Part shown: positions 36,961 to 64,000 of the stretch, one piece after another | Layout of the letters: each line of letters opens with the position of its first letter | Numbering within the stretch: the first letter of the stretch is position 1 | Origin: Marsupella aquatica | Lineage: Eukaryota > Plantae > Marchantiophyta | Direction: 5' to 3' | Length of the DNA: 64,000 bases | Assembly (NCBI GenBank): GCA_973895155.1 | Contig: OZ316892.1 | Span: 12,030,238-12,094,237 of the forward strand | Notes under the pieces: model-generated | Seen by the model: only the letters and a program-made list of their open reading frames with translations | Database searches by the model: none | What the model was told of the DNA's origin: nothing | Program-made: the position numbers and the translations under genes

Positions 36961-37150
36961 ATGACTTGAAGTTCTCCATCAATTACTCGCCATTGATGAC
37001 CATTCACTAGTACATTTTATCTCCTTTTTCCGATTCTCTCCACATCGGATGCCTTTGTAAAATAAATTTTGAAAAACCATACATCCGATACTACTAGCAT
37101 CGCAACATGCCATTTTAATAGTATCGGATATCGACAATCGGACTTCTATC

Positions 37151-37303
37151 GGAAAGTCCGATGGTGGGAGAATGGGAAAGTCCGATGCTAGGAGAATGGG
37201 AAAGTCCGATGGTGAGAGAATGGGAAAGTCCGATGCTAGGAGAATGGGAAAGTCCGATGGTGAGAGAATGGGAAAGTCCGATGCTAGGAGAATGGGAAAG
37301 TCC
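37151..37303. repeat. 24-bp minisatellite with two strictly alternating variants (48-bp higher-order unit)
   Basis: GGAAAGTCCGATGGTG(G/A)GAGAATG alternates with GGAAAGTCCGATGCTAGGAGAATG; 6 full units plus a partial one. Confidence 0.9.
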
Positions 37304-38320
37304 AAAGCAATCAAAATGGGATATGCATTTCAGCGGACGCGACATGCTCAGGTCACCCATCTCTTCCGATCCTTTAATTGGGTTCTACTTTCATTTGGAA
37401 CTATGAGCTAGGTGCCCATTTCCCTTGACATGTGAACTCTTCAAATTTTCTCAACTAATTGGTCACCCATCCCAATTGCTATTCCTCCAACACACTAGTA
37501 GAAACCGGGGGGTATTTAGACCCCATTAAACGACTATTCAGTACCGTATAGGACTTGGAAACGACTGGGAAGGACTCCAGTCCTTTATAGGACTGCGAGT
37601 CGTATGTTTTGTTACTATAATCAACTGAGTCCTTTATAGAACTGGTTTATAAGTCGTTTAATAGATTGGATTTTCAGTCTATTTTAGTCTTTGTGTGGGT
37701 AGCTTTGGTGAGTCGTTTTCAATCTTTTATGGGCTGCGATGGTGAGTCGTTGGGAACGACTAAAAAGGTTATGGAGGGTAGTCTTTAAATATACTTTGTG
37801 GGGTATGTATAAGTCTTTCATGTCAACTGGATATGAGTGATGAAGACCCCACTATACTACTTGGAATGAACCCACTCTTGTGCACAAATAACATATTGCA
37901 TTCATGTTTTATTGTGTACTTGGAATGAACTCACTCTATAAGTTCACCATTCATTATGTTAACATTAGAATACATAGTTTCATAAAGCCATCTTCTATAC
38001 CATGTACACTAATATGAATTCACAGATTCAAACTTCATAGACTACAAAGAAGGTCACAAAGTATTCCTCTATACCATACACACTAATACTGAAATGATAC
38101 AAAACAGATTCAAGTATCATAGACAATCACCATAGAGCCATAGTTTGACATCAATCACTTGTTTCATACATACAGAATTCAGAAATATCAATGTCACACA
38201 CAACGGCTCCTTCATCCTCTTTACCAAATGGAAAAATTGGTACAGATATGTCTTGGATCTTTCCAAGGCAATGTCAAAATGTGACACAATTCACATGATT
38301 CTATCTACACTTGCATTCAG

Positions 38321-41300
38321 TCACTGCAGACTAACACACTCTGATGGCCAAAGCACAAGAGATCCTACTGCATCTGCAATTATTTCCTGAGGTGGATCAT
38401 CGTCTCTATTCGGAAATGGCAAATTACAATCAGATACAATCACTGTAGTCAACAACACTACTACATGGTCATCCGGGACCACTTTGCCATGGAATTTTGC
38501 ATGGTCCGGTCGCAAAATGCCTGTACCCACACATACCTGCGAGTCATCCTCCCATGATAGAAGATTATGGACTGGCTCTGCTGTGGCTATCACCTCCACC
38601 TTACCCTGGTTGTTTTTCTTGGCTTTCCTGGGTGGCTTATACATGACATTATTCATACCTTGGTTGCGAGTCATGACTTTGGCACGAGTGTTTTGTGCTG
38701 GTGATCGAGAATTGGCTACACTCTTCTTCAAAGAATCTGCATCCATATTTGACACTTCTGATTGTGTAGCAGGATTTCCCTGCGACATCATCTCAGTATC
38801 TGCCAACATTGTACTTGCTTCAATTGAAGCATCTACAATCTTACTTGCATCCAATGTTGCTCCCAAGTTTCGACGTCGCTTCACCCTGCTCCCACTTGGT
38901 TGAGAGTCTGTCAACTCTGCATCAACTACAATTCAGTGTCATGTCCAACATAAGTCAATCACTCATCACATGTGCTAAATGTACATGTCACCAACCACAA
39001 AGTTGTCACTATCTCCTTACCATTATGAACAGCCTTCTTCCCCTTCTTTGCCATTGCCATATGCTCCATGTCTGCTTCTGTTGATCAATAAACACACCAC
39101 AATATTCAAGTTGAATCTATTAACCACTGAATTGTTTCTCAACATTCATATAGAGGAATTTAAAGCATCAGCTTACCTGATACCTCCTTGGCTATGGTCA
39201 CTGAGGCACTGGGCACATCTTCTTCATTATTGCTCTTTGAATCACCTGATACATCAATCATGATGTCACTTCAGATCCCAGTTCATCCAACCAGTTCTTA
39301 CAGAAAAGATTACCTCCAACCGGCTTAAGCTTCACAAAACTCCATGCACTTTTCAAATGTAATGTACTGGATCATAGCAGGTTACCTGTCTCAGCAACCT
39401 TCTTGCCCTTCTGCTTACTGATTACAGGGTCCTTCTCTGCCTCCACTCTTCTTGCATTCAAACCATTCACTCAATTCATGAAAACTTACTTCTAACATTT
39501 GAACATAGGACACAATGAACAATGGGCCGGTGTCATTTCCATACCTGTGTCAGATTTGCCAATTCCCTTTTTTGTTAACAAGGGCACACTTTGTACAATG
39601 TTGCCCTCATTGTTTGGTTGGGAACCACCCAATTTTTCAATCACAAGCTTGAAATTAGATTCCACTGATGCAAGAAGGTTCGCTACAGATGCCTCCACAA
39701 TATCCAAACGATCAGCCAATTTACTTTCCACTCGAGGGAGTCCACACTCTAATGACTTCAACCGTTCACACATCTCTGTGAGAGTTGTAACAGTTCCCTG
39801 TCATAACACAACTTACATATCTCAGATAACTGTCCCCAAGAACTGGTTGCTTACTTCCTACTACATTTCTTTCTGATGCTCAAGGCCAAATAGTCACAGA
39901 ACATACAGAATTACAACATAATCACCTGTTTGGAAGTTACACTTGTCACCTCACTCCTTTGTTTCATGAACTCCTCTCTCACTTCTTGTGCTGATGGTTC
40001 TTCACCTGTCAATTTCTTCTGCAGTCCACATCAACATACATATGAATGAAACCAAGTGTTGATTGTCAATGAAAATGTAATAATGGTAGCAAGATGATAA
40101 GTTTGAGGCTTACTATCAGGCATGTCACTGCCTTACTAATTGTTCTTTCACTGGAGCATAACTTCCTCTCCCAGCCTGTGAAAGGTGTTTCACTTTGCCT
40201 CGAGCATTTGACATCAGTTCACTCTTGCTCTGTCCAGCCTCCGACATGAACCCTTTGATTAACCATGTCCATTGATCCAGTTCCAATGATGGGGGTGGTG
40301 GCATTCTCCTGTTAGAACCATTGTCTATCCACATCCTTTTCAACCTATGCCTCTCTTGTTTCAAAATCCTCATTGCATAATCTGATATGCAATCTTCAAC
40401 TGGGCCCTTACCATCATTACCAACATACTCCCACCGTTCAAGAATGTCCTTGCAGATAGCAGCCCAATCAGCTTTGTTCTGACTCCTAAACTCTGTAATG
40501 CTCAAATCTAACCAACGCAATACTTCTCCTCTTAGGTCAGAATGCCAACGGTTCTTACCATCACATGTGGGAGTTATCCAACCTTCGGAATTCACTTCTA
40601 CTTTACCAAATTTGTTATTGTCTCCTGCCTTGGTACTCCCTGAAGCGCTACTAGGTGTCCCTCCACGGCCTGGTGTCCCCCCACGGCCTGGGGTCCCTCC
40701 ACGGCCTGATCTCCCCCCACGGCCTAGATTGCATTGTCCAAACCTCCCTGGAGTCCCTGCACATTTACAGGATCCATTTACAGTCACTTACATTAGGTAA
40801 GTATGAATCATAAATCCCGCTGCCAAATATACAGTGGACTTCAGAGCAATTCTGCAATGACCAAGTTACCTCTCCCTTGGCGCATAGATGGTTCTGGACC
40901 ACCTGTCCTATTGCTTTGTCTTGATGAATTAGGGGCATTTCTCCCGCCTGTGAATGATTGCCTCCTATCTGAACGTGGATGGCCTTTGTTGTTTTCGTGA
41001 TTGTCCCAATCAGAGTCTGCATACCAACAGGTACATGCCACACTCATGGACCTGTAAGATAAACTCTTTGCCCTAGCTACACATCAGATAAGTGCATATT
41101 GAGCTAAATCTCTACTACCATCACAAAATCACTAGCACAAGGCACTTACTTGTCCAATCATCCTCCTCACCTTTCCATTGCCCTCTGTACCCGTCTCTAC
41201 CACGCTCTGGGTGTTCATATTCATCCCATCCATCTTCTGCTCCATCATAGTCATCATCATAATTATCAGGCGTCCCTTGCCAATAACTCTGGCTCCTTCT

Positions 41301-41492
41301 AGGGTATGGATTATGTGATTTCTCTCTAGCTGCCCACCTACCTGGGACTTGATGAGGGCCCTGTGCATCCTGCACAGGTGCATTTTTCTGTGAGCCCCCT
41401 GCATCTGGGTCTCCATCCATATCCAATCTTTCCTCTTCACCCCACTCTCCAAGCCCCATGTCTGTCTCCATGTCATCACCCTCTTCCCCCAT
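38321..41492 (-). CDS. Multi-exon TnpA-like protein of CACTA 2 (Ptta/Transposase_24-like plus C-terminal TNP1/EN/SPM-like domain)
   Basis: PPPSLELDQW..SEAGQSKSELMSNAR..SQAGRGSY (40125-40787); VGTG..FHGK..VVV..LPFP..DAVGSLVLWP (38321-38914); acidic and RGG-rich N-terminal exons. The exact exon chain is not fully resolved. Confidence 0.7.
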
Positions 41493-41669
41493 AGCTTCTG
41501 CACAACACCCACAACCAAACAGGGAGAATCAGCACACTAAATTCAAAGTATCAATCAATTTCATGCATATCCAACTATCCTAAACATCATTCCAGGCAGC
41601 AATTCCCGTTCTGTGACTCTGTGCAGGTAGTCATCCTCAACCTCATACTTGCCAATCGCCAGCTGTTGC

Positions 41670-44600
41670 CTATTGCAAATCATCAACCTCATCATATTCC
41701 ATTTGCCCAGGTTCATCATATGTCTCTCTCAATGTTAAGGGGATGTAGTCAGTCCCTGCCCGAGTTGGAAGTACAGTCTCATGACTAGGATGCTCGAATG
41801 CAGCATGGTCATCCAAACTGAACTCTACTTTACTTCCATCCATCCGCCTGTTCCGTGCTTGGCTATGGCATACCACCCTCCAACCATGTGACTCCTCCAC
41901 ATCTGCAAAGAAAGCCTGTTCAACTTGGCTAGGGAAAACAAAAGGCTCAGACCATTCTGGTACTCTGGACCTAAAATTGGCCAACAAGAACCCATCATGA
42001 TCACGCTTCATGGTGGCCCTTGGTCTCTGCCACTCTGATTTCACCCATGATCCCTTCATCAATATCACTGGGACACTTGTGTTACCATAATTCAACACCC
42101 AAATGTCGGTCAACTCCCACACGTAACCCATCTTCATCCACCCCCTCTGTTCTTCAGAGGTTCTCTGCTCAAACACAGAAATCAAACCACAATCATATGA
42201 TACACAATGGTCACCCTGCTCATCCCTCACTCGATAATGATTTCCATAAGCTCTCATCCGTTTGTAGGTCAGAATAGACAATCGTGGTGGCACAGATAGA
42301 AGATACAAATCCTTCTCCATATCTAGGTGATGTCTACTATGCTCTCGAATTGTCACCCGAATCCACTGCTCGAACTGTGGGAAGGGATCCTGCTGCCCAG
42401 AGTGTGCAGCTTTTTGCATATCATATTCCCTACAATATGAGGTACAGGCATAGTTAGGTCTAAACAACACATGACAACCTAAGATCACCCTTGGAACAGA
42501 CAAGAAGCATCACAACAAAGGCAAGTCAATTCAATCACTCACCTCCACCATGGTTGCATAGGCTCTGTGTTTGCCAGCACATATGAATGAGCCTTGTCTT
42601 GAATCGCAACAGGCAGCTGAACAGCACGTCCCACACCTTCAACAACCTCGCCACTCACTCCATCATCTTCACCAGATTTCCAAACTCTTGTCATAGCTTC
42701 ACCAGACCCAGCCATGTACTCTGTTAGGAATCCCAACGTCTCATCCTTAATGTACCCCAATGCCATGGAAGCCTCTGGCCTGTAGTATGTTCTCACATGA
42801 CCTTTCAACAACTTCATGTATCGCTCCATAGGGTACATCCATCTGGTACTGACTGGCCCATACTGCCCTAGCTCTTCTACCACATGGATTAGGAGATGAG
42901 TCATAACATCAAAGAAAGCAGGGGGGAAGTATATCTCCAAGTCACAGAGGACATAAGCAGCATCCTGCTTCAACTGCTCCAATCCTTGGGGATCCCACAC
43001 TTTCACACATATATGGCGAAATACATTGCACAGTCGAAGAATGACATTACGGACTGGTTTCTGCATGAGACCTCTGAGGCATAGGGGCAGAATGTGCTGC
43101 ATCAACACATGGTAGTCATGTGTTTTCATACTGCCAAGTTTATTCTTTGTAATATGCTTCTTGAAGGCACCAGCATAGCCAGAGGGCACTTTCAGACAGC
43201 TCAATCTATACAAGAATGTCTTCCATTCATCCTGTGTGCACACATAGGGAGCTTGGAACTTGAGAAGTACATTGGGATTGCTTGCATGGGGCTTCAACCA
43301 AAGGTGAGGGCGAATCCCCTTCTGTTGCATATCAGCTCGAACTGCTCCTGTATCTTTCTCACCCGACAAGAACTTCAGCAAGCTCTCACAAATATTTTTC
43401 TCAATGTGCATGACGTCCACATTGTGTTTGCTGGGCTCGAATTCCTGCACTCCACAAAGCAAAGAATTCAACAACAGAAACACTAATTAACCACATAGGA
43501 GGATTGTAACCAACATCAATCCACCATTGCTCCAATCTAAAATTGCAATCATACAAGGGCTGGAGGCTAAGTACATTACCCTCCAGTACTCCAACTCCAA
43601 GTCCATCAAGGTCTGTCTTTTCACACCGTGTTTCACCACTGGATCCTCAGGTTCTCGATCAGTGGCACTTCTCTTGTCCCAATCAGCCTTCCTGGCTGCC
43701 CACCTCAGGACTTGCTCTCTGGTGACCCTCTGTGGTGGGCCACGAAGCTCTGTTTTGTTGTTGAAGTGTGCAATTTGAGACCGTGTGTGCCTGTAAGGAT
43801 GATCAACAGGCAGATACCTTCTATGCCCCTGAAATTTCATACTGTGCAGGGCATGCGACCACTCACTTGTCACATTTTTCCCACATGGTGTGCACCCCAC
43901 ATAGCCCTTTGTCACTCGTCCAGATATGATGCCATGGCCTGGGTAATCTGCTATATCCAGCAAACAAATTGCATGCAATCTAAAGGGGCTGGGTCGAAGA
44001 AGCCCCTTCAGAACATCATGGGTTAACACCCCTTCTATCCACAAAGTCTTCCACTCTTCCACTGCTGGAGCCAACATGATATCTATGAATTGCTCGGTCA
44101 CAGAAGCTGGTCCAGGGATTAACAGCACCATCATGACAAAAAACCTCTTTGTAGTCATCCATGGGGGAAGGTTGTAATTTAGCAGCGTAACCGGCCAACA
44201 TGAATAACGGTTGTTTTTGTCTCCAAATGGGTTTACTCCATCCAGTGATAGACCAAATCGAAAGTTCCGCTTCTCTGCAGCAAACTGTGGCCACCTCTCA
44301 TCAACAAATTTCCAATGGTTGGAATCTCCAATGTGACGCTGCAGGCCATCACTGCTCTTGTTATCAGGAGTCCATGTCATCAGCTTGGAAATGGCAGGGC
44401 ATCTAAACAGACGTTGTAGTCTAGGAATGAGAGGAAAATGACGAAGAACCTTGGCAGGGTGTGTACATTTCCCTACATTCTTGTACCTGTGCTTACCACA
44501 ATGAGGGCATGTCAATTTATCTGCATGCTCTTTGCGAAAGAGAACACACCCATCAGGGCATGCGTCAATAGACACATAGTTCAGCCCAAGGTTAGACATC

Positions 44601-45370
44601 AATTTCCTAGCCTCGTACATATTTTTTGGAATTGAATTACCATCTGGTAACATATTTCGGCGCAGGAAGGTCAACAACTCTGTCACAAATATATTGGGAA
44701 CATTGTGATTGCCACAGATGTTCAACAACAACACGACAAAACCCAGCTTGGAGCAGTTCGACCCCTCGTAGATAGGAATGCAAGCTTCTTTGATGTGTTT
44801 TGGGCCCCCAAACACCCACTCCCTCTCTGCTGCACCTTCCCCAATGTCAAAGTCAGGTTCAGCTTGGCCGTCGCCAATGTGTGGCTGCGGTTCATTGTCC
44901 TCTTCTGATTCCACTATGTCGTAAAAAGCATCAAGGTCTTCAAAAATCTCTTGAACCATTCTTGGGACATCCATCCCACCGTCCTCAGTGACTGCCTCTA
45001 CATCTCCATCTTGGTCATCCACGTTCTCATGTTGGACCCCAGGACCATCCTCTGCACAGTCTATGTCCTGCTCTACGTAGTCTCTACGCCTAGCTGTATT
45101 AGAATCCACAAAGTCAGCTCTCCACTCTTCATCAGAGGAGTCTTCTTCTGCTGGTACATTCCAAACCCTCCACCGAGGGTGCCTTTCATGCCGCAGCAGG
45201 TGAAGGTGCACAGTGTTCAAACTCAACGACTTGAATCCTTGGCACTGTGTGCATGGGCATCTCATCCTCCTACTCCTACCTTGGGCGGCCCGGGCTTGTT
45301 CACGCATCCACAATTTAGAATCATGATGCCTAATCCTAAATGGGTTGTGAAGAGGCAACCTTGGAGCCAT
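41670..45370 (-). CDS. Apparently intact TnpD/Tnp2 transposase (~1150 aa, 3 exons)
   Basis: Exons 45370-43580, 43444-42543 and 42429-41670 join in frame. CPCTQC..HLHLLRH, DACPDGC, GLSLDGVNPF, IADYPG, DVMHIEKN, MKTHDYH, PPAFFDVMTHLLIH, WMYPMERYM, EPFVFPSQVEQAF. Confidence 0.93.
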
Positions 45371-45696
45371 CACTATACACACGCACTCAGCACCCTGTCA
45401 TTTTATTATGCAAGTGAAAAATACACTTCCTGTTAAGGATTTCACCCCCGACTGTACTTGCCAAAATACGTAACGTTCCAAAAAAACAAAAAAACAAAAA
45501 ATATAGGTGCCTGAGTCATGTACCTATTCTCAAGTGAATGAGACAAAATTCCTAAATGTTTGAGGGTGTCAACTCCTCCGCTGTCCTCACATGTACTGCC
45601 TCTGCACGTACATCCATGACCATATCAGAGTCCAATCATGTATAGTCATAGACACAAGTGCCAGGTGCGAGACCGGTGTGAGATGTCCTCATCTTA

Positions 45697-46170
45697 CTAC
45701 CACATCAAATACGGATACCAATCCTGTTGTCGATGCCACTCAGCCCTGAGGTACTCAGGCATGTACATTAAGTCATCAAGGTCTAAACCCTGCTCATGCC
45801 ATGGTGGTCTTCGATCCGTGCCTACAAGCAGTGGCAGCAGTGCCCTCCATGGTGCACATGTTGCTACCAAGTCCCTCCACTGGGTACTAATTAGTCTATA
45901 TTTGCAGATATCTTGTGCGCCAGACACCACAAGAACCCTCGGCCAGACATGTGTAAGAACTATATCATCTGCCAAATCAGGCAACAAGGAACCACCTACA
46001 GCATCGTGCTTGTCTAACTCATCTGCTGAAAAGTAAATGTCCTCTTCCGACTGTGCATCCTCATTCACCACAGCATTCACAACACATCCAAGGTCTACAG
46101 GCATTATCTCGGATGGAGCTACACTCTGTCTGGTTACCAATCCACACAAGTAAGCCCAAGCAGTAGCCAT
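45697..46170 (-). CDS. Small F-box-like protein (CACTA 2 cargo)
   Basis: SLLPDLADDIVLTHVWPRV..DICKYRLISTQWRDLV fits the F-box consensus; no C-terminal substrate-binding domain recognised. Confidence 0.65.
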   Translation of the reverse strand: MATAWAYLCGLVTRQSVAPSEIMPVDLGCVVNAVVNEDAQSEEDIYFSADELDKHDAVGGSLLPDLADDIVLTHVWPRVLVVSGAQDICKYRLISTQWRDLVATCAPWRALLPLLVGTDRRPPWHEQGLDLDDLMYMPEYLRAEWHRQQDWYPYLMW

Positions 46171-46406
46171 GCACGATGCAACCCGTAGGAGGACCCTACA
46201 TAGGGCCTGACGGTCTGGAAGAGGCAGCATACCCACCAAAGTCTTCAGCCAAACAGAGCCCAGCAAGTAGATTCACAGTCACACCCCACGCAGCAGGAAA
46301 CAACAATCACTTCAACTGCGACCAACCATGACAAGATGAGTTAGTTCAAGGATCACATTTATTACAAAATTGTGATTTATACAAAAATATGAGGGACTCC
46401 TACTCC

Positions 46407-47255
46407 TCACTCTCTCCCACCTTTGCTAAGCATACATCTCCGCTGAATCTTGGAGGGCCAGGCCTCAAAAATATCAAAGTCCCAAGCATTCTGTCGCTTC
46501 CCTCTAGCTGCTGATTCCAGAAGCCAATCAGGGGAAAGCACCCAAAGATTGTTGTTCATGACAAAATCACGCACTGTTGTCTTAAAGAATTTTCTGCATA
46601 TTTTCATGTATGACAGACCTACAACATGAGTGGAGGTTTCTGTTAGACTCTCCTCCACTGTCCCACCTAGCTCAACAACTATAGACTTGTACAATCTGCA
46701 CTTAGTCTCCCCAATTCCTTCTTCTGCAAATACCACACTGAACCCCTTCATAATGGTATTTCTCTCCTTGCCATGCTCATTCAATATAGCATCTGCACGC
46801 ATAGGATGGTGTCCTATGTTGACAACAGGTCCATATTGGACAGAAGCAAAGTTGGGTTTCTCTGCCACTGCTTCATAGGCTTCCTTTTCAGCCAAAGCCT
46901 CTGCAGTGGCCTCCTCACTCTCCCACAACTCATATTGCTCAGTACTCTGTACACACCTATGTTTAACAGAATCGGTCAGCCAAGAGACTTCAACTACTTT
47001 TAGACCTTGGTTGGTAATGGCAGAATCAATGAAGGACCATGACCACTTGTTCATCACATCCAGCCATGTCCCCGCAACAACATGTGTAGTCTGTGGAGTG
47101 ATGTCCTTGACTTCAGTCCCATGGAACTCTGAGAATCGTTTTTGTACGATTGGCCAACTCACTTGGGTGAACCCATAGTGGCCAGGAATCAAAATGGCTT
47201 TGATTCCAGCCAACAGAGGCGGGTGGTCAACCTTTGTACGTTTCCTAGAGGCCAT
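46407..47255 (-). CDS. Tandem BRCT-domain protein (CACTA 2 cargo)
   Basis: Two repeats: LAGIKAIL..HG..ITPQTTHVV..VVEVSWLTDS and MKGFSVVF..LGG..LTETSTHVV..VLSPDWLLES; N-terminal RKRTK NLS-like motif. Confidence 0.85.
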   Translation of the reverse strand: MASRKRTKVDHPPLLAGIKAILIPGHYGFTQVSWPIVQKRFSEFHGTEVKDITPQTTHVVAGTWLDVMNKWSWSFIDSAITNQGLKVVEVSWLTDSVKHRCVQSTEQYELWESEEATAEALAEKEAYEAVAEKPNFASVQYGPVVNIGHHPMRADAILNEHGKERNTIMKGFSVVFAEEGIGETKCRLYKSIVVELGGTVEESLTETSTHVVGLSYMKICRKFFKTTVRDFVMNNNLWVLSPDWLLESAARGKRQNAWDFDIFEAWPSKIQRRCMLSKGGRE

Positions 47256-47853
47256 GTACACACGGGCCACCTAATCACTGCAGACCGGAAGATAATGCGT
47301 TCACCTGATAATCGGAGGGCCCTTAAAATGCTGCGTTTATAACTTGGTCCAGTCCAGTCGTCTGGTGAGTCTCTGCTCCGATTCCAAATGGGAGAAATAT
47401 TGGGACAAACGTACTAGACACCTGCAAGCATGCACCTCATAGTTTGAATATGTGCCTTCACAATATTGAAGGTGACAAGTGCAATTGTTTTGTGATGCCA
47501 CATACAGATGTTGTAAATGGGCAGACATTCAATGACAATACAAAATGTTGGTACACTTTAAGGGAATTCTCGCAAATTACATAGCCTTGTAACTTATATG
47601 CTCATAATGAGAAGTCCTGATTTAATTTAAGCAGTGTCATGTAAGTCGTGATCAAAATGATTGCAGAGTAAAAAAGGTTCCTAGAAGGCTTAAGGGGAGT
47701 TTTTGAAGGCATGTACCCAGGAACAAGTAATGAACTTAGGGTACTTGTTGCCTAAGCATCCTCTCCTACAGAGGTCCTTCTTCTCAAAATTGGAATGTCT
47801 GCAATCTCCAAGGTATCCACAACAGGTGCACTATGCATGTACATTATTCAGGT

Positions 47854-48534
47854 TCAAAGCCAAGAAATGTGATCTCTCATGGGAGTGTGCAAAGTAGGAT
47901 CTATGGCATGGCGATGACAATAGAAGATCCATCGATCAACACCATGTGCAGAGTGATCATAGATGTGTCTGTCACAAGCATAGCCTTCTGCTTGACGCTC
48001 CTTCAAACAATGAAAGTGCCACATGGTGGGACACCTAACACAGTGGACTATGTCCACCCAGAAATCTTCATCGTGCTGACCACATGCCTTGCACTTATGA
48101 AGTGGGCAAGCTGTGGCAAGATCGGGCAAACATGAAAAACAAAAGAACCTCACACAATATCTGTCAGGGCATTTCCTAACAAGTGGTGGAGCATCAACAG
48201 AGCCCTCATAAGACCCCAACTTCCCACACTGTGCACACTTAGCCTGCTTCTCCAAACAATCAGTGCACATCCAGCCTCCCTGGTGTGCTGACGGGAGGCC
48301 CACCCCTGGACAGTTGTTTTCTGCAGCAAGGTCAGACTCTGGGTTGAGGTGGAAATGCCTCATGCAAGGGCCCTCACATATGGCTAAGCCACCACCATCG
48401 TCACAAATGGCACAACAATGAGCTGCCTTCTGGAAAATCTGACTTGCGGAGAAGTTACTACCATCTGGCCCAACTACACCTGTGTTGCTCACCTCTATCC
48501 CCCGCTTCTTGGCTCGGATTTTAGGGCGTGCCAT
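47854..48534 (-). CDS. Stand-alone EDM2-type atypical PHD-finger cassette (CACTA 2 cargo)
   Basis: CAICDDGG.L..CEGPCMRHFH, CAQCGKLGS, CPLHKC..C, CVRCP..WH..CL and YCHRHAIDPTLHTPMRDHI closely follow the PHD region of plant ENHANCED DOWNY MILDEW 2 proteins as recalled; basic N-terminus. Confidence 0.8.
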   Translation of the reverse strand: MARPKIRAKKRGIEVSNTGVVGPDGSNFSASQIFQKAAHCCAICDDGGGLAICEGPCMRHFHLNPESDLAAENNCPGVGLPSAHQGGWMCTDCLEKQAKCAQCGKLGSYEGSVDAPPLVRKCPDRYCVRFFCFSCLPDLATACPLHKCKACGQHDEDFWVDIVHCVRCPTMWHFHCLKERQAEGYACDRHIYDHSAHGVDRWIFYCHRHAIDPTLHTPMRDHISWL

Positions 48535-49203
48535 GCCTACGCATGAGACAGATAGTACAATTTAGCAGAGTGCACAGACAATACAATTTAGTGTAGTGTA
48601 CAAAAAGTACAGTGTAGCATATAGACTAGAGTGGCAATTGCTACTGCAATGAAATGTTCACACACATGTGCAGAGTAGACATACTTTTTGGTTTGTTGAG
48701 CCCACACTAAAAACTGATCCCCTCGTACAATAGCTCCACCTACACCTCAATTTTGTGGCTATGATTCACCAAAGGAGATCTGCAACAAGATTTAATGCAT
48801 TTGAATCACATATAACAGTCGTGACATGTAAAACAGGCATTTTTTGAACAGGATTGGTATCAAGCAGTGTGATCAGGGTTGTAATTTATACATCCTAAAT
48901 AGGCTATGATAGTGAATGAGACAAATAAGTTAGGCATAAATCACTTTTTCCAGGTTATCACATGGCCCATTAATTCCAGTCTTTGAAAGGAGACTTTTAA
49001 GTGAGCTTGCTAGCCTCTTAAATTAGGATATTGTACTTAGTGCAGCCATAATAGGATAAGTTATGTACTGTTGACCGTAAACCCTGGACCCAAAATTGCT
49101 CATAATTCAAAATCTTAAGTAAATATCCTCTCTGTTCAAGTCAAAGTGTTAAGTTATAGGTCAATGGTCTCTGGTCTGTGCATGCGGTGTGACAAGTGGT
49201 CTT

Positions 49204-49776
49204 CTACAGCGTGTGATCCAAACATGTGTAGACACCAAAGTGACCGGTGGTGGGGTCTGGGAGGGCAAGACAAGTGACATTGCCAGGCACACTGCAGGAT
49301 GGCGAGTGGTTCCAGATGATACATTGTGCTCTGTGAAAAAACCGACATCCAAGAGAACGGTCATCCAACTCTAGGCCAGAAGCCCTACAGGCAGGACAGT
49401 CATACTGGCAACTGTGCACACACCCTTGGGCCCTAATTTGTGGCGGGTCATGTACGAGAGACAAAAATACCAAGGATGTTGGGAAGGGTGGAGAAGCAGG
49501 TACAGGGCGGCTGTAGTTATTCCTGGCAACAATTGGGTACTCAAAGTACCATGCAGACTGGGCTGGAAGGATCCCAAGTCTGACATACTCAAGGCGCAAC
49601 ATCTCTGCCTTGCGTGCAAGCCGCACATGTTCAGCATTGCGGGTCCTCACCATAAGTGTTGCTTTTGTGGAGTGTCGTGTGTTCACGTCCTCTGATAAGC
49701 ACCTTCGATCAGCAAGGTGAGCAGGAGCTGTACTTGCCTCACCAACAGCAACCAACCTTAAATTATCAGTTCCCAC
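49204..49776 (-). CDS. Possible further cargo ORF, Cys/His-rich C-terminus, unknown function
   Basis: 190-codon ORF co-oriented with the cargo row; non-ATG start in the track, so it would need an upstream exon; no recognised domain. Confidence 0.25.
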   Translation of the reverse strand: MGTDNLRLVAVGEASTAPAHLADRRCLSEDVNTRHSTKATLMVRTRNAEHVRLARKAEMLRLEYVRLGILPAQSAWYFEYPIVARNNYSRPVPASPPFPTSLVFLSLVHDPPQIRAQGCVHSCQYDCPACRASGLELDDRSLGCRFFHRAQCIIWNHSPSCSVPGNVTCLALPDPTTGHFGVYTCLDHTL

Positions 49777-52700
49777 TCACTGTGTCATTCCATTGGTTCC
49801 AGCTAGGGGTCACAATGTAAACATAGCATGAAACACTCTTAATCAACTTGCTTACAAACTACAATATCCAGAAAGAGTGAAAGTCTCACCCTCCAGTGAG
49901 CAGTAGAGAGGTAGTTCACTGGATGTGTTGATGTGCAGTTAAACCTCCACTATTGCTTACTTCTGGTGTATGCTGCTCAGTCGGAGACATATTAGTAGCA
50001 GCAAATTGCAAATAATGGCCATAAGCAAACCGTGAGAGTTTGCAGAATGCTACGACAACTATTCATCCATCACAACAGTGCTCCACAGGAATGAAACCAA
50101 GCAAAATTTGGTGACCTCGGCCAATGACAAGGCCAATGTAGTTCACAATCCTTGACCGATCAGGATATGGATTGGAATTACAATTAGTCAGCTCTTCTTC
50201 TTTGTTTCCTAACTCTGGGGGAAATGAGCATGACAAGGGAATTCTCTGAGAAATAGAAGTGCACAGGGAAAATGAAATTGACTCATTGAGCTGCGCAAGA
50301 TGACCACTACAGCATACTTGGACAGTAGGTTCCGCAATCCATAAAATCCCCGTCTGACGTATTTAAGCAGTGCAATTTAAGCAGTCAGATGCTACATAGC
50401 AATTAAGCACAAAGGCTACTTCATGTCTGTTTACATAGAATTTTGGATTGAAGTAATGAGAGCTATACATTTAAACTTACGGTGCCAACTCCGTCAGTAG
50501 TTGCTGAAAATGGCATGGGAAACACTGGTATGACAGGAACTCAAGGAAACATTTGCGGCAATGTCTTCACAGGAAAAGAAGAATTGCTAAGTACAGTATT
50601 CTTAATAGTAGTTTCGTTCTAATTCTGAAATCTACACATAGGACGGAAACCCAGGACATTTCTCATGAAAATTGAAGATCCATTCGACAACTCCATGACA
50701 GCCTATTCCGCATTGTGTCCGTCCCATGCAAGCAAGGGGTGTTCAGCCGAGCTTAGTCTAACCACGAATGATTGTTCTGGAAGCAGTTGCGATAATGTTT
50801 TGGTAATTTTCTCCTATATCCAACTCAGTAGCTCACAAACATGGCATTGGACCCATTAAAAAATTATACTTGCCATCATTCTCAACTGTATTACATGGCC
50901 CACACTGCTGATGTCCCTGACTCTTAAGGGAAACTCATCTCCTGGGCCAGCAACATCTCAGATTCTACAAAAATGAGAAACTGTGAAGACTTATTGAAGT
51001 CATATCCTGTGATTGTAGCATGTATGATTTGCTGGGACTACAAGCAGTTCTAGATCCTGCTGCACTTTATATACAACAGCAACCTGAGCTACATGAACTT
51101 GTTTTTAATAGACGTGCGTTTGACCACGGCTACAACTCCAAAACAATCAGTCACCCAATCAAATCATAACAAACCCACCCGCAAGCTGAATGTAGAGGAT
51201 AGAGATAGAGAAAATCACCGGGGCAATGAAGTTGGATCACAGGGTGCAAAACTAGTACTCAACAGGGTAAGACCGATCACAGCAAACAAAGCACAGAGCT
51301 AGACCAACAAAACTCCAGCAAAGATAGTGTCATGTCCATTTATTTGTAGGGAATGAAGTCGGATCGCAGAGTGTAAAACCAGTAGGGTAAGACAGATCAC
51401 AACAAACAAAGCTAACACAACAAAGCACATAGAGGAACAAAACTCCAGCAAGACATAAATTAGACCTCGCAGCTTTTTGACTAGCAAAGGGAGATAGTCT
51501 ACGCTTTCCATTGCTGGTCACAGCGCGACGGGCAATCAGGATGATGCCATGCCGAGTAGAAGAACAACAAAGCATTCTATAAAAAGCATTGAGGTTGGCG
51601 TTATAGTAAAAGTGGTAGTACTTCCAGTAGCGCGACCAACTCGCTAAGTGACAGTCCGAAGTAGCTTACCTCCGAGAAGAAAGCCAGAGCAGTTTAGCAG
51701 AAATCCCCAAGAAAATCCCCACTCTGAAGATGGTAAGCTTGCAGTTGCTCCCCCGGGTGCTCCCCTCAACCTCGCCACTTCTATTCTGAGCAGCGCAGGT
51801 CTTCTCCACCCTCTCACCTTGCACCTACTGAACAAGTGACCAGCACTATCCACTCCCACCGCAACTGTGGACGGTCCCTAAAAAAATGTAGATGATAGCG
51901 ACCAATAGACAAAGGATTACAGGCGTAGACCTGGCAAAAATCTTCTTCCGAAAAGCTTTCCTCAGCCCGATTCTTGTGCACATCAGAAAAAACTCAAACC
52001 ATTTAGAAATGAGATCACAGATTACTCTTGACAATCTAAAAAATGCCACAACCTAAGCACTCATAGCTCCGTCCCCCCATTCTAATTTCTCTGACGAGTT
52101 TGCCTTAAAGCACATCCACTCGCGGTTCAAGCAGATTCAGAATCATCATAGACAATAGAGTGTTCCACCATAGCCCACGGTAGGTCCACGACCATCATAA
52201 CCAACCCTCACACCCAGCTCCCTCAATACCCACAGCTCCGCCCAGCTCCGCGCCTACCGGGGTTTATTAGTATTGCTCACTTTTAAGAAAGGCAGTTTTC
52301 TCAAAAGCAGTCTAATTGCCTAGACGGCACTAGAAAAGTTGGAGGCAATATCACAGCGGAGCATTCTGCGTCTAAGGGCCAGCGACGAGTTGCAAAGGTG
52401 GTTTAACCTCGTTCTGAGTCAAGACTAAAAGCTTTAGATCCAGCCATTCCGCGATTCCTTAAAGAAAACCCGTGATGGACATGCAATGTTGTGCTACTGC
52501 AATGAACAGAGTAAGGCAATGCAGTGGTCATCGTAGCTATGAAGAAGAAATGGTAGTGGAAAGTCTAGCTCAAACAATGGAGTGTATGAATCAGCGCTCA
52601 AGAAGGTCACCTGAAAGTTGCGCGTACAGCTTGAAGATGGAGCAGCCCAATCGGCTTCCAATCGATGAGCAACGAGCACAACTCCACTGTGAGTAGACTG

Positions 52701-55099
52701 TCTTTGCAATGCCTCCGCGAGCTTAAGGAGCCACTACAGTCCACCTTCCGCAACAATCGCCTTCCGCATGGATCGCCTTCCTCAGCGATTTCCTTCCGTA
52801 GTCCACCTTCTGCAGGAGCATGCAAGTCCACCTTCCGCAGCAGCAGGTTGGTCACTTGTGGATTAGTCAAACTTGGAACCTTAGCTCTCCTCCCACCAAA
52901 CTCCCACCACTGTCCGACCACACAAGCTTTGGTCCGCAACCGCAATGGCGCACAACTCCTCCCCTCAGCTAAACCCTCAGCGCCTCAGTCCCCAGATCAC
53001 AGCTCCTCCCGGACTGCAACTCACTGAAAACGTAAGCACTCAGGATTGCCCTTGACAATGTTGCCGTTGCGCTACACATTGCCCTTTCGCAGCCACAACC
53101 TTCTTCGCCCTACCAGCACAACCCTCTTCGCCCTACCATCACATTACGCGCGGGAAGGGAAGTCTGCAATCATCGCAAAAGTGGGCAACATGAAAAAGGA
53201 AAACCCTACGTAAAACCCCGAACCTTGGACCCCTCACGTTCTAAGTCCAATGACGATGGCCCGAACACTCCAAAGTCACTCCCAAAGTGAAGTTTAGTGC
53301 CTCTTTACCAAATTAGGGGACTTAAGTCATTAAGGGGAGCCTTACCGTTTGAGTGAGCCGTTGAGTGTCACCCAAAGTGAGAGTTGAGTGTCACCCAAAG
53401 TGAGACACCACTACAAAGTGTTACTGCATGGCCATCTTGGATATGTTACTGATTTTTCTTGGCTTGGAAAACTTCAATAAAGCGGGATCATGCTAGCCCA
53501 AAAATCTTGGGTATGCGTGCACACCGGTTCTTGGCTTGGCAAACTTGAATAGAATGGGATGTTGGTGAAGCCCAGCACCCTTTGGAAAACCCCAAACGCC
53601 CAACCCAGGACCCCACCCCCTTGCTTAGGCCACCAAGTAATCAATGAGATTCTCCCGTGCCCACAAGTTAAGCGTTAACCCACACCCTTAAACTTGATTA
53701 GGGTAAGAAGGCCCTTACCGTTGGGGTGTGAAGTTGACCACAACGACTCTAAATGTGAAGCATAAGCCCCTCACCCCGTGAAGATGTAACCCCCCCCCCC
53801 CACGCTTGACATATAAACCCCCCTAAACCCCATTTAGTGACCCCCCACACCCTTGACATATAACCGGCACACCCTTGAGATATCACTAGTACAAAACAAG
53901 GTTCTTTATGACCGCAATAATGACTATTTATATGGTCTTTTCAACAAAACAATGACGCAGTCATTCTCGTCTTTCCAGACGCGTCACAACGGACATTTTG
54001 GTCACGGTCGTTTCGGACAAATGACGCAAAAAACATGTGGTCATTTTACACCGTCTGAAATGACTTAATTTATGATTTGGTCATAAATGGTGAACGGTCT
54101 GAAATGACCAAAAAACCACCGTCAACGGTCAATCACCGTTCACCGTCGATTGTATCCGTACCCAATTATATAATGCCACGTGGCAATTAAAAAACAAAGA
54201 TCATTTGTCATTTTGGACTTGTCCAAAATGACGCACAATATGTAACAAATCAAGGAGTGACATGTGGCTCAAAGGATTTTAACCATGTGGCAATAAATTT
54301 GGGTCATTTTGGACGTGTCCAAAATGACTACATTATAGACAAGTCATATATAGACACATGGTTAAATTGGGAAGAAACGCGTAGAGATACACACTGGTCA
54401 TTAATGACATGTCTGGAATGACTTGAAAAGAGTCATATTGGACACATTTATATATGTCTATAATGACCATAAGATCAATCATTTTATATGTCAGTAAGGC
54501 TATGTCTTTAATGACTTGAGGTGGGTCATATATTGGATGCAATTACAGAAGTTCATGATGACCATTAGATCAATCATTTTATATGTCATTCAAGTCATGT
54601 ATTCAATGACTTGGAGTTATACAAATTTAAATGGTCATATTGGACAAAAATTCATGTCCCATACACTACAAAGTCATTCAATAGATTTGCTGAATGAAAC
54701 ACTAAAGAGACATTCTATACCTAATGAATCCAATTGATATTCATACAAGATACATTCTTAAGTCCCACAATAGTTATTGAACACAATAGTTATTCAACTC
54801 AATGCAAATTTATGAAGAAAACAGACATTGAGAAAAAGCATACACAATATTATTAGATGTATATCAAGTGCTGCAATCTGAAATACCTAACAACTCTGAA
54901 TGTGTGTAGAAAAACAAAGTTGTCATTCTCATTCTACAAAACCTACTTCTATCATGTCTAGTGTTTCTTGGCCCATGGCTGCTTCTACTGCTTCTTGAGC
55001 AATCTAGAGTTCCACAGGGCATTCATCCCCTTCACATGAGATAACTTAGACTGGTTCTCCCCAGCATTAGCAAATGACAATGCCACATCTACAAACACT

Positions 55100-55900
55100 T
55101 CAATCACACGCACTCAGAAGAAAGGACCATCCATGTAGTCATCATGCTTGCCAACTCCTTCATAGTGCCTTTCAACTCATCAACATCCAATTTCACAACC
55201 CCAATGGCACTGATCTCTTCTTTTGAATGTGGGGTCTGTAAATGACTCACAAGCCAACACAACATTCTCACTGTCAAACTAACAAGAATTTGATCACAGC
55301 AAGATGTGTATTGAAGCAAAGGCAATCCTATATGTCACACACAGAACTTGTAAGTTCGTAGCTGATCATGAATTTTTCTTTGCAGTCACCATAAACCATA
55401 AAAACCAGGTGCCACAAAATATACCACATGAGGAAGCGGGATCAGAGACTTACAGAGGGGTCAGACACTTCATGCTGGTGGATGTAGCTACGATGTGATT
55501 CAAAAACCCAGTTACATCTTGAATTGAAGTAGTGACAGCCACCTCCAAGGACAACAACCAAATAAGAAAGCATGATATTAGATAACTGTAGAACTATTGA
55601 TTTTGTGATAACCATTTACTGCTAAGATTAAAACATACCAACTTACAACATAGTTGGGCAGAGCCTTGGGTGGTAGAGCTCTTACAACTTGCTTGTTCAG
55701 TCGAGTCCCCTTCCTTAGCAACTGTGAAAAATGGAAGCTCGCCAAGTGATTGTTAATGGTCAAAATTCCACCCTCCACTTCAGACAAAGATAGGTAGTAC
55801 CCCCAATGATCCATAGAGCACAAGTGCATACCTTAGAAGACCAATCTGTCAAGTCCAGCTAAGAGAAAATTAAGTAGTAACTCTCTGACTTTAGCTGGAA
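55100..55900 (-). pseudogene. Degraded Ulp1/C48-like peptidase fragment in CACTA 3
   Basis: Minus strand reads ..HLCSMDHWGYYL (His motif) and downstream DPASSCGIFCGTW (Cys motif); frames are broken. Ulp1-like genes are known passengers of plant DNA transposons. Confidence 0.35.
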
Positions 55901-58900
55901 TAAATTTGAATATTTTGCACATCTCATTGCTGGCTTAGTTTGAATGACGTATCTTCTATGACATAATTACAAAATATGATACAGGCCCAAGTTTTGCATG
56001 GGATTGTGCACACAAAACTATTCAGAGATGATCATCACCATGTGCATGCCAAACAAGATAGGAGATTCCTAGCATAAAGTAATACACACAGCTGCTGCAG
56101 ACCGTTCTCAACACTTCTTCAAAATACAAGATTCTTGATGATAACCAAAAGTGGCCCAGTTTCTTTGAAAATGACCTATGCTCGTGATGTATTGGTCGCC
56201 TTTGAAAATAGTGAGAATAACAAAATAGAATTTAAGAAATGAGGAAAGCCAAACCAAACAATTCAAGATGAGATATGCGGGCGCTACATCACTATGTGGC
56301 CTACCTGTTATGGATTTCTGGCCACTCGTGTTGGGACAGGGTGTCAATTTTTTCTACAGGGCCTCCACCTTTGTTTAAAGCTCCACAGCCTGAAATAACC
56401 ACTTCCAAACATTACCAAGAAAAACAATTATTCTTCACGCACAACGGTCTCCACCATAAAACCAAAATAAGATTACTACAATTATTCTCCAGGCACAACC
56501 GCTTGCACCAATAGGGCACTGCTTCAATCATTACCACACATATTGTTATTGAAGAAGTCACCACACAAATTTACGTAGGCTGCAAGTCCTGGGTGAGAGC
56601 TGCAAAACATATAATAAAACTTCTGAGATTGAAAACTGTTCAAGATTTATTCTTCGCAGGACTTTTCCAAAAAGTGTGAGCGGAGCTGCAACGATGTAAG
56701 CTTTTCAGATTAAAAAATGTTTGCATCATCAAAAAGTGCTTTTCTAAAAGATGGGAGTATTGTATAGTTCTATAATCAAACGTAGAGCTACAGTGATGTA
56801 AGCTTTTGAGATTGAATAACTATTTGAGATTACAAAAATGTTCCCATCCCGAAGAAGGGCGTTTCTAAAAGATGTGAGTAGTACTGTACATTCCTGTAAT
56901 CAAAAGTCAAAAACATCCACTATATTGGAACCAAAATTATCACAGGATTCTTGTCACATAGCTATCATATCACATAGCTTGAATGATTCCTCTAGCACTT
57001 AGGTAGAAGTCCACGACACAATCCATGCCAGACCAAGTGGGTCCGCTAGTACCTACTATGTCATGCAGGAGGAATGAAATGCTAGACCAAGTGGGTCCGC
57101 TAATACTTACTATGTCATGCAGGCACAACAGCAGCAGCAGGCCAAGAGCTTCCAAGTTCCAATGCTGAAAGGTTTCTATTAAAAGGTCATATATTGCAAT
57201 CTGTGGGACCGAACTCTGACATTTGTAAAGAACAATTTTTAAGTCAGGTAAACTTAATTATTCCCAAGTATAGGGCGGTGACAATTGCATTTTCCATGCT
57301 TAACCTGGCTAGTCTACATGTAGAATCATTATTCCCAAAACATTCCACGGCAGTAGTAGTACGAAGCCAAAAAGGTTTCAAAGATCTTGAGGGGAAAATA
57401 ATCCAGATTGAGAATACAACGCGGAGCTTTGATCCTTCTCGGTTTTGTAATATCATAAAACACTGACTAAACTAATCTGCTCACATAGAAATATGATCCG
57501 TTTCTACCAACACTGACCCCGAAAAGAGTATAAAGCCAGATTTCTTGCCTTCAAATTCTCAGACATTAAAATCAATCATATCTCTCATAATTGGAACTTA
57601 TAGTAGTTTCCAATGTGTTTTCGTAGCCATCTGTCGGAACCGTTTTTGGCTTGTTGGCTGAATTGAGTGAGGCGCCGAACAATAGACCAATAGTACGTAA
57701 TTACTTGACTAGATGGGATTTAGTGAGGAATAGCTCCAGATACCATAGAATTGATCTGTACAATCTCACGCTAAATGCTGACGTTCAGATATATGACTGG
57801 CCAACTAGCAAATTAAGCAATAAACAATCAAAATCCAAGAGGCACTATAAGTTCTTGAATAGCCTTGGAATCAATACACGGTTAGAAACGTTGCTCCATA
57901 AATGCGGCTACCTCTGAAATGCAACAAAATCTATTCAATTGGGCTATTGGATTTTAGTTAGTGATGGACGTGTATGGCACTGCTTCTTGTGAAGACATAC
58001 AAAATGACGGATTGCTTTTCAATATATGATTCATGTGCCAATTCTTCTTTCCTAAAATTCTTTTAATTAGCGAAAAAAGCTAACATACCGTCTACAAAAG
58101 GGCTGGAAGTGCCGCTGCAAGCTGTGTCCTAGCTTGATCTGTTGCCAAAAAGTAGACCCGGAAGGCCTGCAATAATTGCAAGTGCTACGTCCTTTGCAGC
58201 CAAAGTGAGCCTGGAAGGCTTGCGATTGGAAGTGCTGCATCCTCGGCTGCTAAAATGAAACCAAAAGGCCTGTGACTAAAATTGTTGCATCCGTCCTTTG
58301 TCTCTACAATTGCAAATCTTGCTCTTGCCCAAAATTGTATATGCCTTGTCGACCTTGTAGCCCCTTCCTCCCCACTCAAAGGCTCTCAATCACAACTACC
58401 ATCGAAAGCAAAGCAATCACAAAGGCATTCTTGTGATTTTAGCTCCGACCGTTTGTGCCAATCAGGTTGTCAGCAATGCCACAGTATTGAAGTTGAGTGC
58501 GCCACTCTTCTTGGAGCCATCGTTTGTCTTGGCCAGACATTCTCCAGTCCAATAGTAGTCCTTGAGTGGGTCCTCCAATCGATTACCACCCTCGTTCATA
58601 ATCCTACTGATCAATTAGAAAATTTCAATCAGCAAGGTTTGAATCAAACCGTGAACTCAACAACACTAACACAGTGTATTGCCCTGCGCCCTACCCCCAG
58701 GGCCCTACCATTCCATCAATTTGTCCAAAACAAGAATGATGTGTTAAAACGCTACAACACAATCAGTGACGAAGGCATTCAAGCCTGAACTTTCTGAACT
58801 GTCCGATCCATCCACTCAGCACCAACAATAGGATTATACAAAGACTAGTCACACTGAAGCAATACTCCCAATCCACTGTGCGCAATGTTCACGTACAGCT

Positions 58901-59999
58901 ACATCTGCTTGTTCTTTTCAGACCTTCCACAAATCTAGATCGAGAGCATCGCAAACCACCATCAATCCCTCCCCACGCTCTCACAACTCTCCAACGGAAA
59001 GCTATGGCGGTCAGCGGCTGCTAAAGATGGGCATGAGGGACAATGTGCAGGAGGGAAGCGAGGTCACGTGGGAGGATTCAAATCCCTCTCACCAAGAACG
59101 TGCCCACGCCCCACCCCACCCGTGAAACCTACCCCAGACGGCCCGTGAACCTCCACTATGCCCAGAGTGCAGATTCAATAGCTTACAAAAATATTTAATT
59201 TTATATTTTGAGTTACATAACCCCTACTTTTATGCAATGACATGTGGACCAATATAAAAATGACACATGTTTTTGTTGACTATGTCACACCTTTCCTTAG
59301 AAATAAAAATAAAATTTTGAATGGATATAATAAGGCTTTTGTATTGTAATATACTAATCCAAGGTTAATATAATCCCTTCATTCAAAAAAAATGCATTAT
59401 GATTATTACAGGCCAATAAAATATAAATTACCTTCATGCGTGTAGGGGGGCTTCAGTATCTTTGTTGGGGCCCAGGGAATGGGTTCTCTACATAAGTGCA
59501 AGCATTTCAGATAGTAGAGATGTTGTGTAAAGTGGAATATCTCCAAACAAAGCTTTATTTGTAGAGAAACATTTTGTCCATCTACCAACTGAGTCACAAA
59601 CAATTAAATTTCCCTCTTGTTCCTCATTATTATTGAAACTTTGTGGCAAAGGTTAGCAAAGGAGACACTAAAGTTTAACACTCGCAAATTTAGTATTAAG
59701 CTTGCCTTAACAAGTTAATGATGTTTTTGCTTTGTTTTTGCTTATTTATTAGTACGTCCTGGTACGTTAAGAACTTGATAAAAACTCCCTACACTATGTT
59801 CATTTTGCAATAACCCAGGTGTAAGGCAGTTGATTTGTGGCCTTTGCTTTGTTTGTTTGGAGTATTAATATTGCTGACTATTGTCCTCATTCACCGCCCT
59901 AGTTAATCCATATTTCACCCATATTGTGGTGAATGGGACCATGGAGAAGAGGGGGCCAAAGGAAGACTAAAATTGGGACCAAAATAGCCATTAGGTATT

Positions 60000-62900: not shown

Positions 62901-64000
62901 GAGAGCCAACTTTAGATTCCTTGCAAGGTTGGAATATTCCTATACCCTAATCCCGCACCCACATCATGCGGAGAAGCACCACTCCCCTGCCCATTCCATT
63001 GGTGCAACACTACCTCTTGGAGAACCAAAAAATAGGTTTTATTTGCCTTTGGATGTGATGGTATACATCCATGGTTGCACTTTTGGCAAATCACTCCAAA
63101 GTCGTACGACTTGGGAGTGATTTCCCCAAAGGTGCATCATGCCTCAAGTAAACGCAAAAACATGTGTCCAAAGTGTTTATGTCGCAACTAGTGGTTGGAC
63201 AATGATGAATATAGTGTCCCGCACCCAGTGGAGGGGTTCTCACCTCTATGTGGGGCCCCATGGCACTCTAGGGCCCACCTCAAGCCCCTAGCCCCAAACT
63301 GGTCATTTGTGCTTTTCCTTAATGACTGCATGAGGGACCCCTAAAATGACCACATATCCAGTCATTTGACTGATATGACTCTCCATATGACATTTTTAAT
63401 GACCCTAATTTTAGTCATTGGCATTTATGACGGGCCATTGCTCACATATGACCCAATAAAGGCCCTAGTACCTCCAAAGAGAGCCAGCTTTAGATTCCTT
63501 GCAAGGTTGGAATATTCCTATACCCTAATCCCACACCCACACCATGCAGAGAAGCAGGACTCCCCTGCCCATTCCATTGGTGCAGCACTACCTCTTGGAG
63601 AACCAAAAATATGTTTTATTTGCCTTTGGATGTGATGGTATACATCCATGGTTGAACTTTTGGCACGACTTGGGAGTGATTTCCCCAAAGTGCATCATGC
63701 CTCAAGTAAACGCAAAAACACGTGTCCAAAGTGTTTATGTCACAACTAGTGGTTGGACAATGATGAGTATAGTGTCCCGCACCTAGTGGAGGGGTTCACC
63801 TCTATGTGGGGCCCCATGGCACTCTAGGGCCCACCTCAAGCCCCTAGCCCCAAACTGGTCATTTGTGCTTTTCCTTTTAATGACTGCATAAGGGACCCCT
63901 CAAATGACCACAAATCCAATCATTAGACTGATATGACTCTCCATATGACAGTTTTAATGACCCTACTTTTAGTCATTGGCATTTATGACGGGCCATTGCT
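60000..64000. repeat. Tandem satellite, unit ~520-600 bp, about 7 copies
   Basis: Anchor ACTAGTGGTTGGACAATGATGA.TATAGTGTCCCGCACC at 60941, 61537, 62092 (diverged), 62609, 63187 and 63745; a further degenerate copy near 60405. Confidence 0.92.

Follow-up and report, generated by a model that had tools for sequence, protein, structure and literature searches.

Why would a DNA transposon carry a PHD finger protein, a pair of BRCT domains and an F-box-like protein next to its transposase? The question is raised by a stretch of 64,000 nucleotides (nt) of the liverwort Marsupella aquatica (assembly GCA_973895155.1, contig OZ316892.1, positions 12,030,238 to 12,094,237), hereafter the window, which contains a minus-strand CACTA/EnSpm element with such genes upstream of TnpD and a TnpA-like gene. 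The original prediction for this DNA described five co-oriented minus-strand genes as an operon-like chromatin cassette. All five were found where it had placed them, with intact TnpD and TnpA-like frames, although it had overlooked a sixth, Cys/His-rich open reading frame (ORF; 49653-49207). Judged by sequence comparison, the cargo genes are real and belong to a multi-copy CACTA family. We give a probability of roughly 55% to the reading that this fixed cassette of compact, intronless, host-like genes is retained for accessory proteins with which the element weakens or diverts host silencing.

Table. Coordinates and supporting evidence for the element, its genes and two further CACTA elements of the window (TIR, terminal inverted repeat; aa, amino acids).
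Feature	Coordinates	Strand	Evidence
Second CACTA, SET-carrying, complete but degenerate	22215-31922		Paired TIRs CACTACAACA
3' TIR and subterminal ACGACT-type repeats	37493..37800	-	7 ACGACT hexamers in 308 nt; adjoins copia-like sequence
TnpA-like accessory gene	38321..41492	-	9 inferred exons, 737-745 aa, stop-free; usual TnpA position
Very strong acceptor, 5 nt upstream of TnpA ATG	41498..41530	-	13-14 bits; 0 of 442 other ATGs reach this score
TnpD transposase, 1150 aa, intact	41670..45370	-	3 exons (45370-43580, 43444-42543, 42429-41670); in frame, 0 internal stops
F-box-like ORF, 177 aa, intronless, motif near C-terminus	45697..46230	-	Pfam F-box below cut-off; homologues 52-56%
Two-BRCT ORF, 282 aa, intronless	46407..47255	-	Pfam BRCT E 6e-14, 2 stretches
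Standalone EDM2-type composite PHD module, basic N-terminus, 226 aa, intronless	47854..48534	-	Sequence match to metagenome record L002; 5 homologues
Sixth ORF, 149 aa, Cys/His-rich, single-exon	49204..49653	-	Open frame; top contig depth bin in runs X1-X3
5' non-coding region with candidate leader exons and CpG-rich promoter-like stretch	49654..53883	-	CpG 29-40 per kb at 51-54 kb
Nested CACTA, apparently breaking the 5' end of the PHD-cargo element	53884..64000	-	TIR CACTAGTAC on +, own ATGAC subterminal repeats; terminus in same orientation

The association of the cargo with the family was read from DNA contigs of five sequencing runs (X1-X5, from three studies) that contain the stretch, one of which may be the source of the window itself. 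Contig depth does not equal copy number and is used here as a sign of continuous, comparable cover. In four runs the ratio of median depth between cargo and TnpA-TnpD was 0.68-1.62, and 0-3% of the aligned contig pieces continued into unlike sequence. The contigs of X4 likewise cover the cargo, over which two subfamilies were distinguished, one near-identical (depth ~2700-2950) and one diverged (~4000-4300). No inferred intron was seen among the joints displayed (15 of 99 in four runs, two in X4), and the runs therefore behave as DNA. No contig bridging a cargo ORF and TnpD occurred among the approximately 30 pieces listed of ~20,800. Location of the cargo within the CACTA, as first proposed, is upheld by the comparable cover of cargo and transposase and by the presence of the cargo in both subfamilies. 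In X5 (organism C), sharp depth peaks occur at 42403-43536, 47000-47107 and 48296-48403, which are conserved patches of TnpD, BRCT and PHD, a hint of a more abundant, distant family that shares them.

The core of the element follows the EnSpm plan. TnpD contains the Pfam domains Transposase_21 (E 1e-59), DUF4218, DUF4216 and Transpos_assoc, together with the C(2)C and H(3-4)H motifs. The TnpA-like gene lies head-to-tail 177 nt downstream and has a weak, below-cut-off match to Transposase_24 (E 0.0055). With both ORFs intact, the element looks autonomous. The cargo consists of the upstream single-exon ORFs, the minus-strand order being sixth ORF, PHD, two-BRCT, F-box-like, TnpD and TnpA-like, with spacers of 176-669 nt. 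The CACTA terminus at the 3' end (CACTAGTAG on the plus strand) lies at 37493, and X1 contigs depart from the window sequence at 37492, as would be expected of an empty site in the copia-like repeat alongside. Beside this end, a broken copia-like integrase region and a 24-nt tandem repeat (37124-37345) occupy 35584-37400 of the minus strand.

No matching terminus was found for the 5' end between 48.5 and 53.9 kb, and the PHD-cargo element has one TIR only within the window. Given the terminus of another CACTA at 53884, a nested insertion was therefore inferred, which makes the element at least 16.4 kb long; its 5' end was probably displaced out of the window by this insertion. A contig of X2 passes 53883 into subrepeats of the element's own type instead of the nested CACTA (joint 53883-53842). 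The nested CACTA has an apparent TnpA-like 3' end at ~54.9-55.6 kb (read by eye) and, from 60 kb onward, at least six diverged tandem units of ~520-600 bp each.

Among the cargo genes, the PHD ORF has the clearest affinity. It encodes a composite NSD-type PHD module with its C-terminal extension and matches residues 242-446 of L002, which we take to be EDM2; the alignment has 30% identity over 210 columns (E 5e-23) and extends to the TP.RDHI motif at the C-terminus. L002 is a 1305-aa record of a metagenome collection with DNMT1-RFD and NSD-type PHD domains. The match to NSD2 in a library search is much weaker (E 0.027). The histone reader originally proposed is plausible and was narrowed to the EDM2 type. 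Five standalone homologues of 217-245 aa share 38-82% identity with the cargo protein and keep both ends, and 24 of the 38 Cys/His positions are invariant across the six sequences. Nine loci came from a scan of the metagenome collection: a single full-length EDM2-like record, relatives with the PHD part alone, and one PHD protein unrelated to them. A transposase-length ORF is missing from all nine. A search for longer PHD relatives returned two matches, neither of which is EDM2. PHD-only EDM2-like ORFs occur in L001 and L003-L007, those of L001 and L005 being ~48% identical to the module of L002; truncation is therefore not peculiar to the transposon. With Arabidopsis EDM2 (PMC7472560, PMC7529245, PMC3632883) the cargo shares the composite PHD module through the C-terminal motif. 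In contrast to EDM2, it has no N-terminal RFD and no C-terminal methyltransferase-like region, as the 226-aa ORF stops right after the module, and the second finger carries a deletion of ~18 residues.

The structure model of the BRCT ORF (predicted local distance difference test, pLDDT, 80.6) shows two BRCT folds. Superposition on the PARP4 BRCT gives Z 14.7 and an rmsd (root-mean-square deviation) of 2.1 over 96 residues, and the closest folds include domains of XRCC1, ligase IV, TopBP1 and REV1, at near-tied ranks. Seventeen homologues were found, of which four are full-length with 28-62% identity. Phosphopeptide-binding tandem BRCTs of the BRCA1/MDC1 type have a pocket of Ser/Thr-Gly and Thr-x-Lys and are tightly packed head-to-tail. 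In a weak alignment to BRCA1 (E 0.13), the pocket Lys falls on Ser and the pocket Ser would fall on Tyr27, just beyond the aligned stretch. The linker (residues 135-163) is of low confidence in the model, with an rmsd of 11-21 to tandem pairs. A phosphopeptide pocket seems to be missing from the two folds, and the evidence leans against the proposed phosphopeptide reader.

The F-box assignment is weaker. The motif scores 13 bits against a Pfam cut-off of 20.5 (E 0.1), the best value in homologues is E 0.0011 (three of the four aligned members), also below the cut-off, and the match to FBXW11 has E 0.64. The ~48 residues after the motif match no family and contain no recognisable C-terminal substrate domain. 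Of the SCF adaptor once proposed, the weak motif remains and the substrate domain is missing, so that the protein would be at best a decoy-like form. Its start, previously set at 46170, was moved to 46230, since residues 1-20 are kept in two of three homologues and the ATG at 46230 is kept in the sister subfamily. The sixth ORF, which may be coding, has no Pfam match below 0.29 and no match in the Atlas. Four ORFs of at least 149 aa are present in 45380-50300, compared with none in 436, one in 62 and two (the maximum) in 2 of 500 Markov simulations. Exact look-ups with five ORF forms of the window gave no match, nor did viral and prokaryote scans; those with the homologues brought up no informative names.

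How these genes might be expressed was addressed with small acceptor and donor matrices derived from 6-9 introns of the window itself, those whose position the reading frame fixes. The original prediction had quoted a 3' splice site just before each start, and all AG strings it quoted are present, with stop-to-AG gaps of 576/583, 192, 324 and 172 nt. The site before TnpA is exceptional. For the PHD, BRCT, F-box and TnpD starts, the best acceptor no more than 30 nt away scores 2-5.5 bits, a level that 9-22% of other ATGs also attain. Combined p-values are 0.002-0.004 with the TnpA site and 0.035-0.09 without it, depending on settings. With the F-box start at 46230, its quoted acceptor CTCTTCCAG lies within conserved coding sequence (codons 4-5) and is not supported. 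Upstream of the cassette, donor scores are highest in the leader region, at 51669 (10.4 bits), 52610 (9.1) and 49960 (8.5). Donors close to each acceptor (70-200 nt upstream) are unremarkable (1.0-6.6 bits; null median 4.2), and a distant leader is therefore mildly favoured.

These values, together with the short spacers and the alternative splicing of maize Spm and Arabidopsis SPM3/7 (PMC13547354), are what speaks for a strict operon, in which one leader exon at 52-53.3 kb would be spliced to each of the five or six cistrons with alternative polyadenylation. This model would be compatible with any of the cargo functions proposed below. We regard it as doubtful, given the F-box acceptor within coding sequence and the weakness of four acceptors. 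In addition, at 88% identity, 50341-53742 is covered to only 2-18% of the contig depth of TnpA/TnpD; with this drop beyond 50.3 kb, copies have little of the proposed promoter region in common at that identity. At least four Arabidopsis Spm families (SPM2/5/6/9) have separate head-to-tail TnpD and TnpA genes (PMC13547354), and CAGE (cap analysis of gene expression) finds that TnpA-like genes, where encoded separately, have start sites of their own (bioRxiv 10.64898/2026.08.24.746577). As the likeliest arrangement, at somewhat less than even odds, we hold that expression is partly shared: TnpA at least, and some of the cistrons, would receive a spliced 5' leader. Separate promoters come close behind in likelihood.

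Retention of the cargo as protein-coding genes is indicated at longer range. Standalone homologues of similar length for PHD, BRCT and F-box keep their ends at 28-82% identity. Ten of the twelve indel rows of X4 fall outside ORFs or at a stop codon, and the other two lie inside BRCT and sum to +3. Eight diverged contig ends in the cargo, taken from 12 of the 88 loose ends displayed and including two that overlap, are in frame and stop-free, with 13 silent and 16 replacing codons. Several observations weigh against retained accessory proteins. L002 was equated with EDM2 from its domain layout, not from a record that carries the name. In the PHD tree the cargo does not group within an EDM2 clade; with the long branches of this tree, descent from EDM2 and from another NSD-type PHD protein are not separated. 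The PHD structure model is poor (pLDDT 56.7), and Foldseek returned nothing beyond generic PZP/PHD matches for it. The homologues come without genomic context, and a link to transposons is observed only in the window's family. Four of the five acceptors are individually within chance. Substitutions among close relatives are nearly neutral: 24 of the 40 variant places displayed (from 166) are coding; the change is silent at 7 of these and replaces a residue at 17 (omega ~0.8-1.0, p 0.35-0.6), an outcome indistinguishable from neutral. Six of the 11 BRCT replacements are in residues 251-278, near or beyond the end of the fold. Finally, X5 has a 43-nt deletion ahead of the F-box motif that throws the ORF out of frame; two other ATGs then enter the frame. 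On selection, for which dN/dS of the cargo had been proposed as a check, the picture is therefore mixed.

This near-neutral ratio and the frameshift in X5 would be expected if the cargo were camouflage or a passenger, that is, host fragments captured once and amplified with the family, which either have no protein role or make silencing by small interfering RNAs (siRNAs) costly to the host. PMC13317346 also describes camouflage and pseudogenisation as the usual fates. We consider this explanation unlikely, as open frames, Cys/His residues and both termini are retained at 38% identity and indels avoid ORFs. The DNA is presumably also too diverged for shared siRNAs because protein identity to the one EDM2-like gene compared, used in place of the host's own copy, is ~30%. 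Equally unlikely, in our estimate, is that the cargo proteins work in the transpososome, with PHD steering insertion to or from a chromatin mark and BRCT recruiting end-joining factors, and with no part in anti-silencing or RNA processing: the repair proteins among the closest BRCT folds, the reading of H3 tails by PHD fingers (PMC3632883) and the position of the element beside a retroelement and around another CACTA agree with it, and the fold ranks on which it leans are near-tied and show no function.

For the preferred reading, accessory proteins that blunt or redirect silencing, the ORFs, folds, homologues and presence in the family are observed, and the mechanism is what we infer. EDM2 PHD fingers bind dimethylated lysine 9 of histone H3 (H3K9me2), and within heterochromatin the ASI1-AIPP1-EDM2 (AAE) complex favours distal poly(A) sites (PMC7472560, PMC7529245). 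By analogy, the target of the PHD-only protein would be methylated H3 tails on the element in its silenced state. Lacking the other domains of EDM2, the protein would compete with or replace EDM2 in this complex, on which poly(A)-site choice depends, and would so govern the reach of transcripts toward TnpD and TnpA. With six cistrons and the transposase genes last, the element would rely on poly(A) choice if the leader is shared, and a reader-only module could bias that choice. Repair factors would dock on the BRCT pair independently of phosphorylation, and the F-box would serve as an SKP1 decoy. The most specific combination, a one-leader multi-cistron CACTA whose PHD-only EDM2 mimic would act on the heterochromatic poly(A)-choice machinery to switch the output between mRNAs of the cargo and of the transposase, accompanied by BRCT and F-box decoys as well as by SET-bearing sister families of the same genome, seems decidedly improbable as a whole. 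If true, silencing would here be countered through RNA 3' processing.

A SET-carrying CACTA is present in the same window. This unrelated element is ~31% identical to the PHD-cargo element in one TnpD stretch. Its SET-domain ORF (26487-27296, Pfam E 2e-5; no match in a PDB sequence search) lies between the first and second TnpD exons and has its own acceptor, TnpD exon 1 starting from 26150 and the next TnpD acceptor lying at 27476. This arrangement suggests one first exon alternatively spliced to SET or transposase. The TnpD ATG of this CACTA is likewise preceded by an acceptor, at a distance of 5 nt. The usual CACTA target-site duplication is 3 bp; here the flanks (22211-22214 and 31923-31926) match over 4 nt (AGTA) and not over 3, which may be chance in a low-complexity flank. 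Inside the element, two ORFs of 277 and 206 aa (stop-to-stop), one stop apart and without Pfam match, are divergent from TnpD at 23476-24927 of the minus strand. Elsewhere in the window, NB-ARC gene pieces followed by a weak HEAT-repeat match occupy 10066-14138 of the plus strand, an atypical architecture resembling nucleotide-binding leucine-rich repeat (NLR) genes. The NB-ARC gene, the copia integrase and the plant-type transposase domains of the window all point to a plant host.

Compared with known systems, the element shares its CACTA terminus and the head-to-tail order of TnpD and a TnpA-like gene with maize En/Spm and Arabidopsis EN/SPM (PMC13547354; bioRxiv 10.64898/2026.08.24.746577). 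The available text on these families does not mention upstream PHD, BRCT or F-box genes; the terms are absent from that of PMC13547354, and PHD from that of bioRxiv 10.64898/2026.08.24.746577. Pack-CACTA elements (PMC13317346) likewise have CACTA ends around host-derived sequence, and this identity was ruled out by the intact TnpD and the long-conserved whole ORFs, in contrast to recent fragments in a non-autonomous element. Red algal giant Plavaka elements of the EnSpm superfamily (PAG1-3; bioRxiv 10.1101/2025.02.11.637652) are 17-19 kb long and high-copy and have a conserved three-gene accessory cassette with a SET and adenine methylase chromatin protein. Their transposase lineage and cargo differ, however, as Plavaka carries enzymes whereas the window's element would carry modules that read, scaffold or act as decoys. 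Fungal EnSpm, Plavaka and ESTA elements with TET/JBP and HarbingerS with SET (PMC12730594) are similar in having epigenetic accessory genes, for which escape from silencing has been proposed. In contrast, theirs are single enzymes, with no reader of a host poly(A)-control pathway. VANDAL elements with VANC and KAONASHI-Ulp1 (PMC13317346, PMC13547354) also represent plant DNA transposons with a repurposed, conserved host chromatin or protease module. They differ, by description and not by sequence, in belonging to the Mutator superfamily and in the action of VANC via short DNA motifs.

In the literature searched, no PHD, BRCT or F-box cargo has been reported in a CACTA; this scope leaves out Repbase, subscription journals and supplements (e.g. 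the 2026 preprint's 962 structures of Spm proteins), which may contain such families. EnSpm-group elements with chromatin accessory genes are already known, and the combination of PHD, BRCT and F-box cargo is new within that literature. Two unrelated CACTAs with chromatin modules (PHD and SET) in one 64-kb window suggest that accessory chromatin genes are commoner in plant CACTAs than this literature records. The known anti-silencing factors of plant transposons, VANC and the TnpA of En/Spm, whose anti-silencing activity is established (PMC13547354; bioRxiv 10.64898/2026.08.24.746577), act via DNA motifs, whereas a transposon-borne EDM2-type reader module would point to another front, the H3K9me2-coupled poly(A) pathway.

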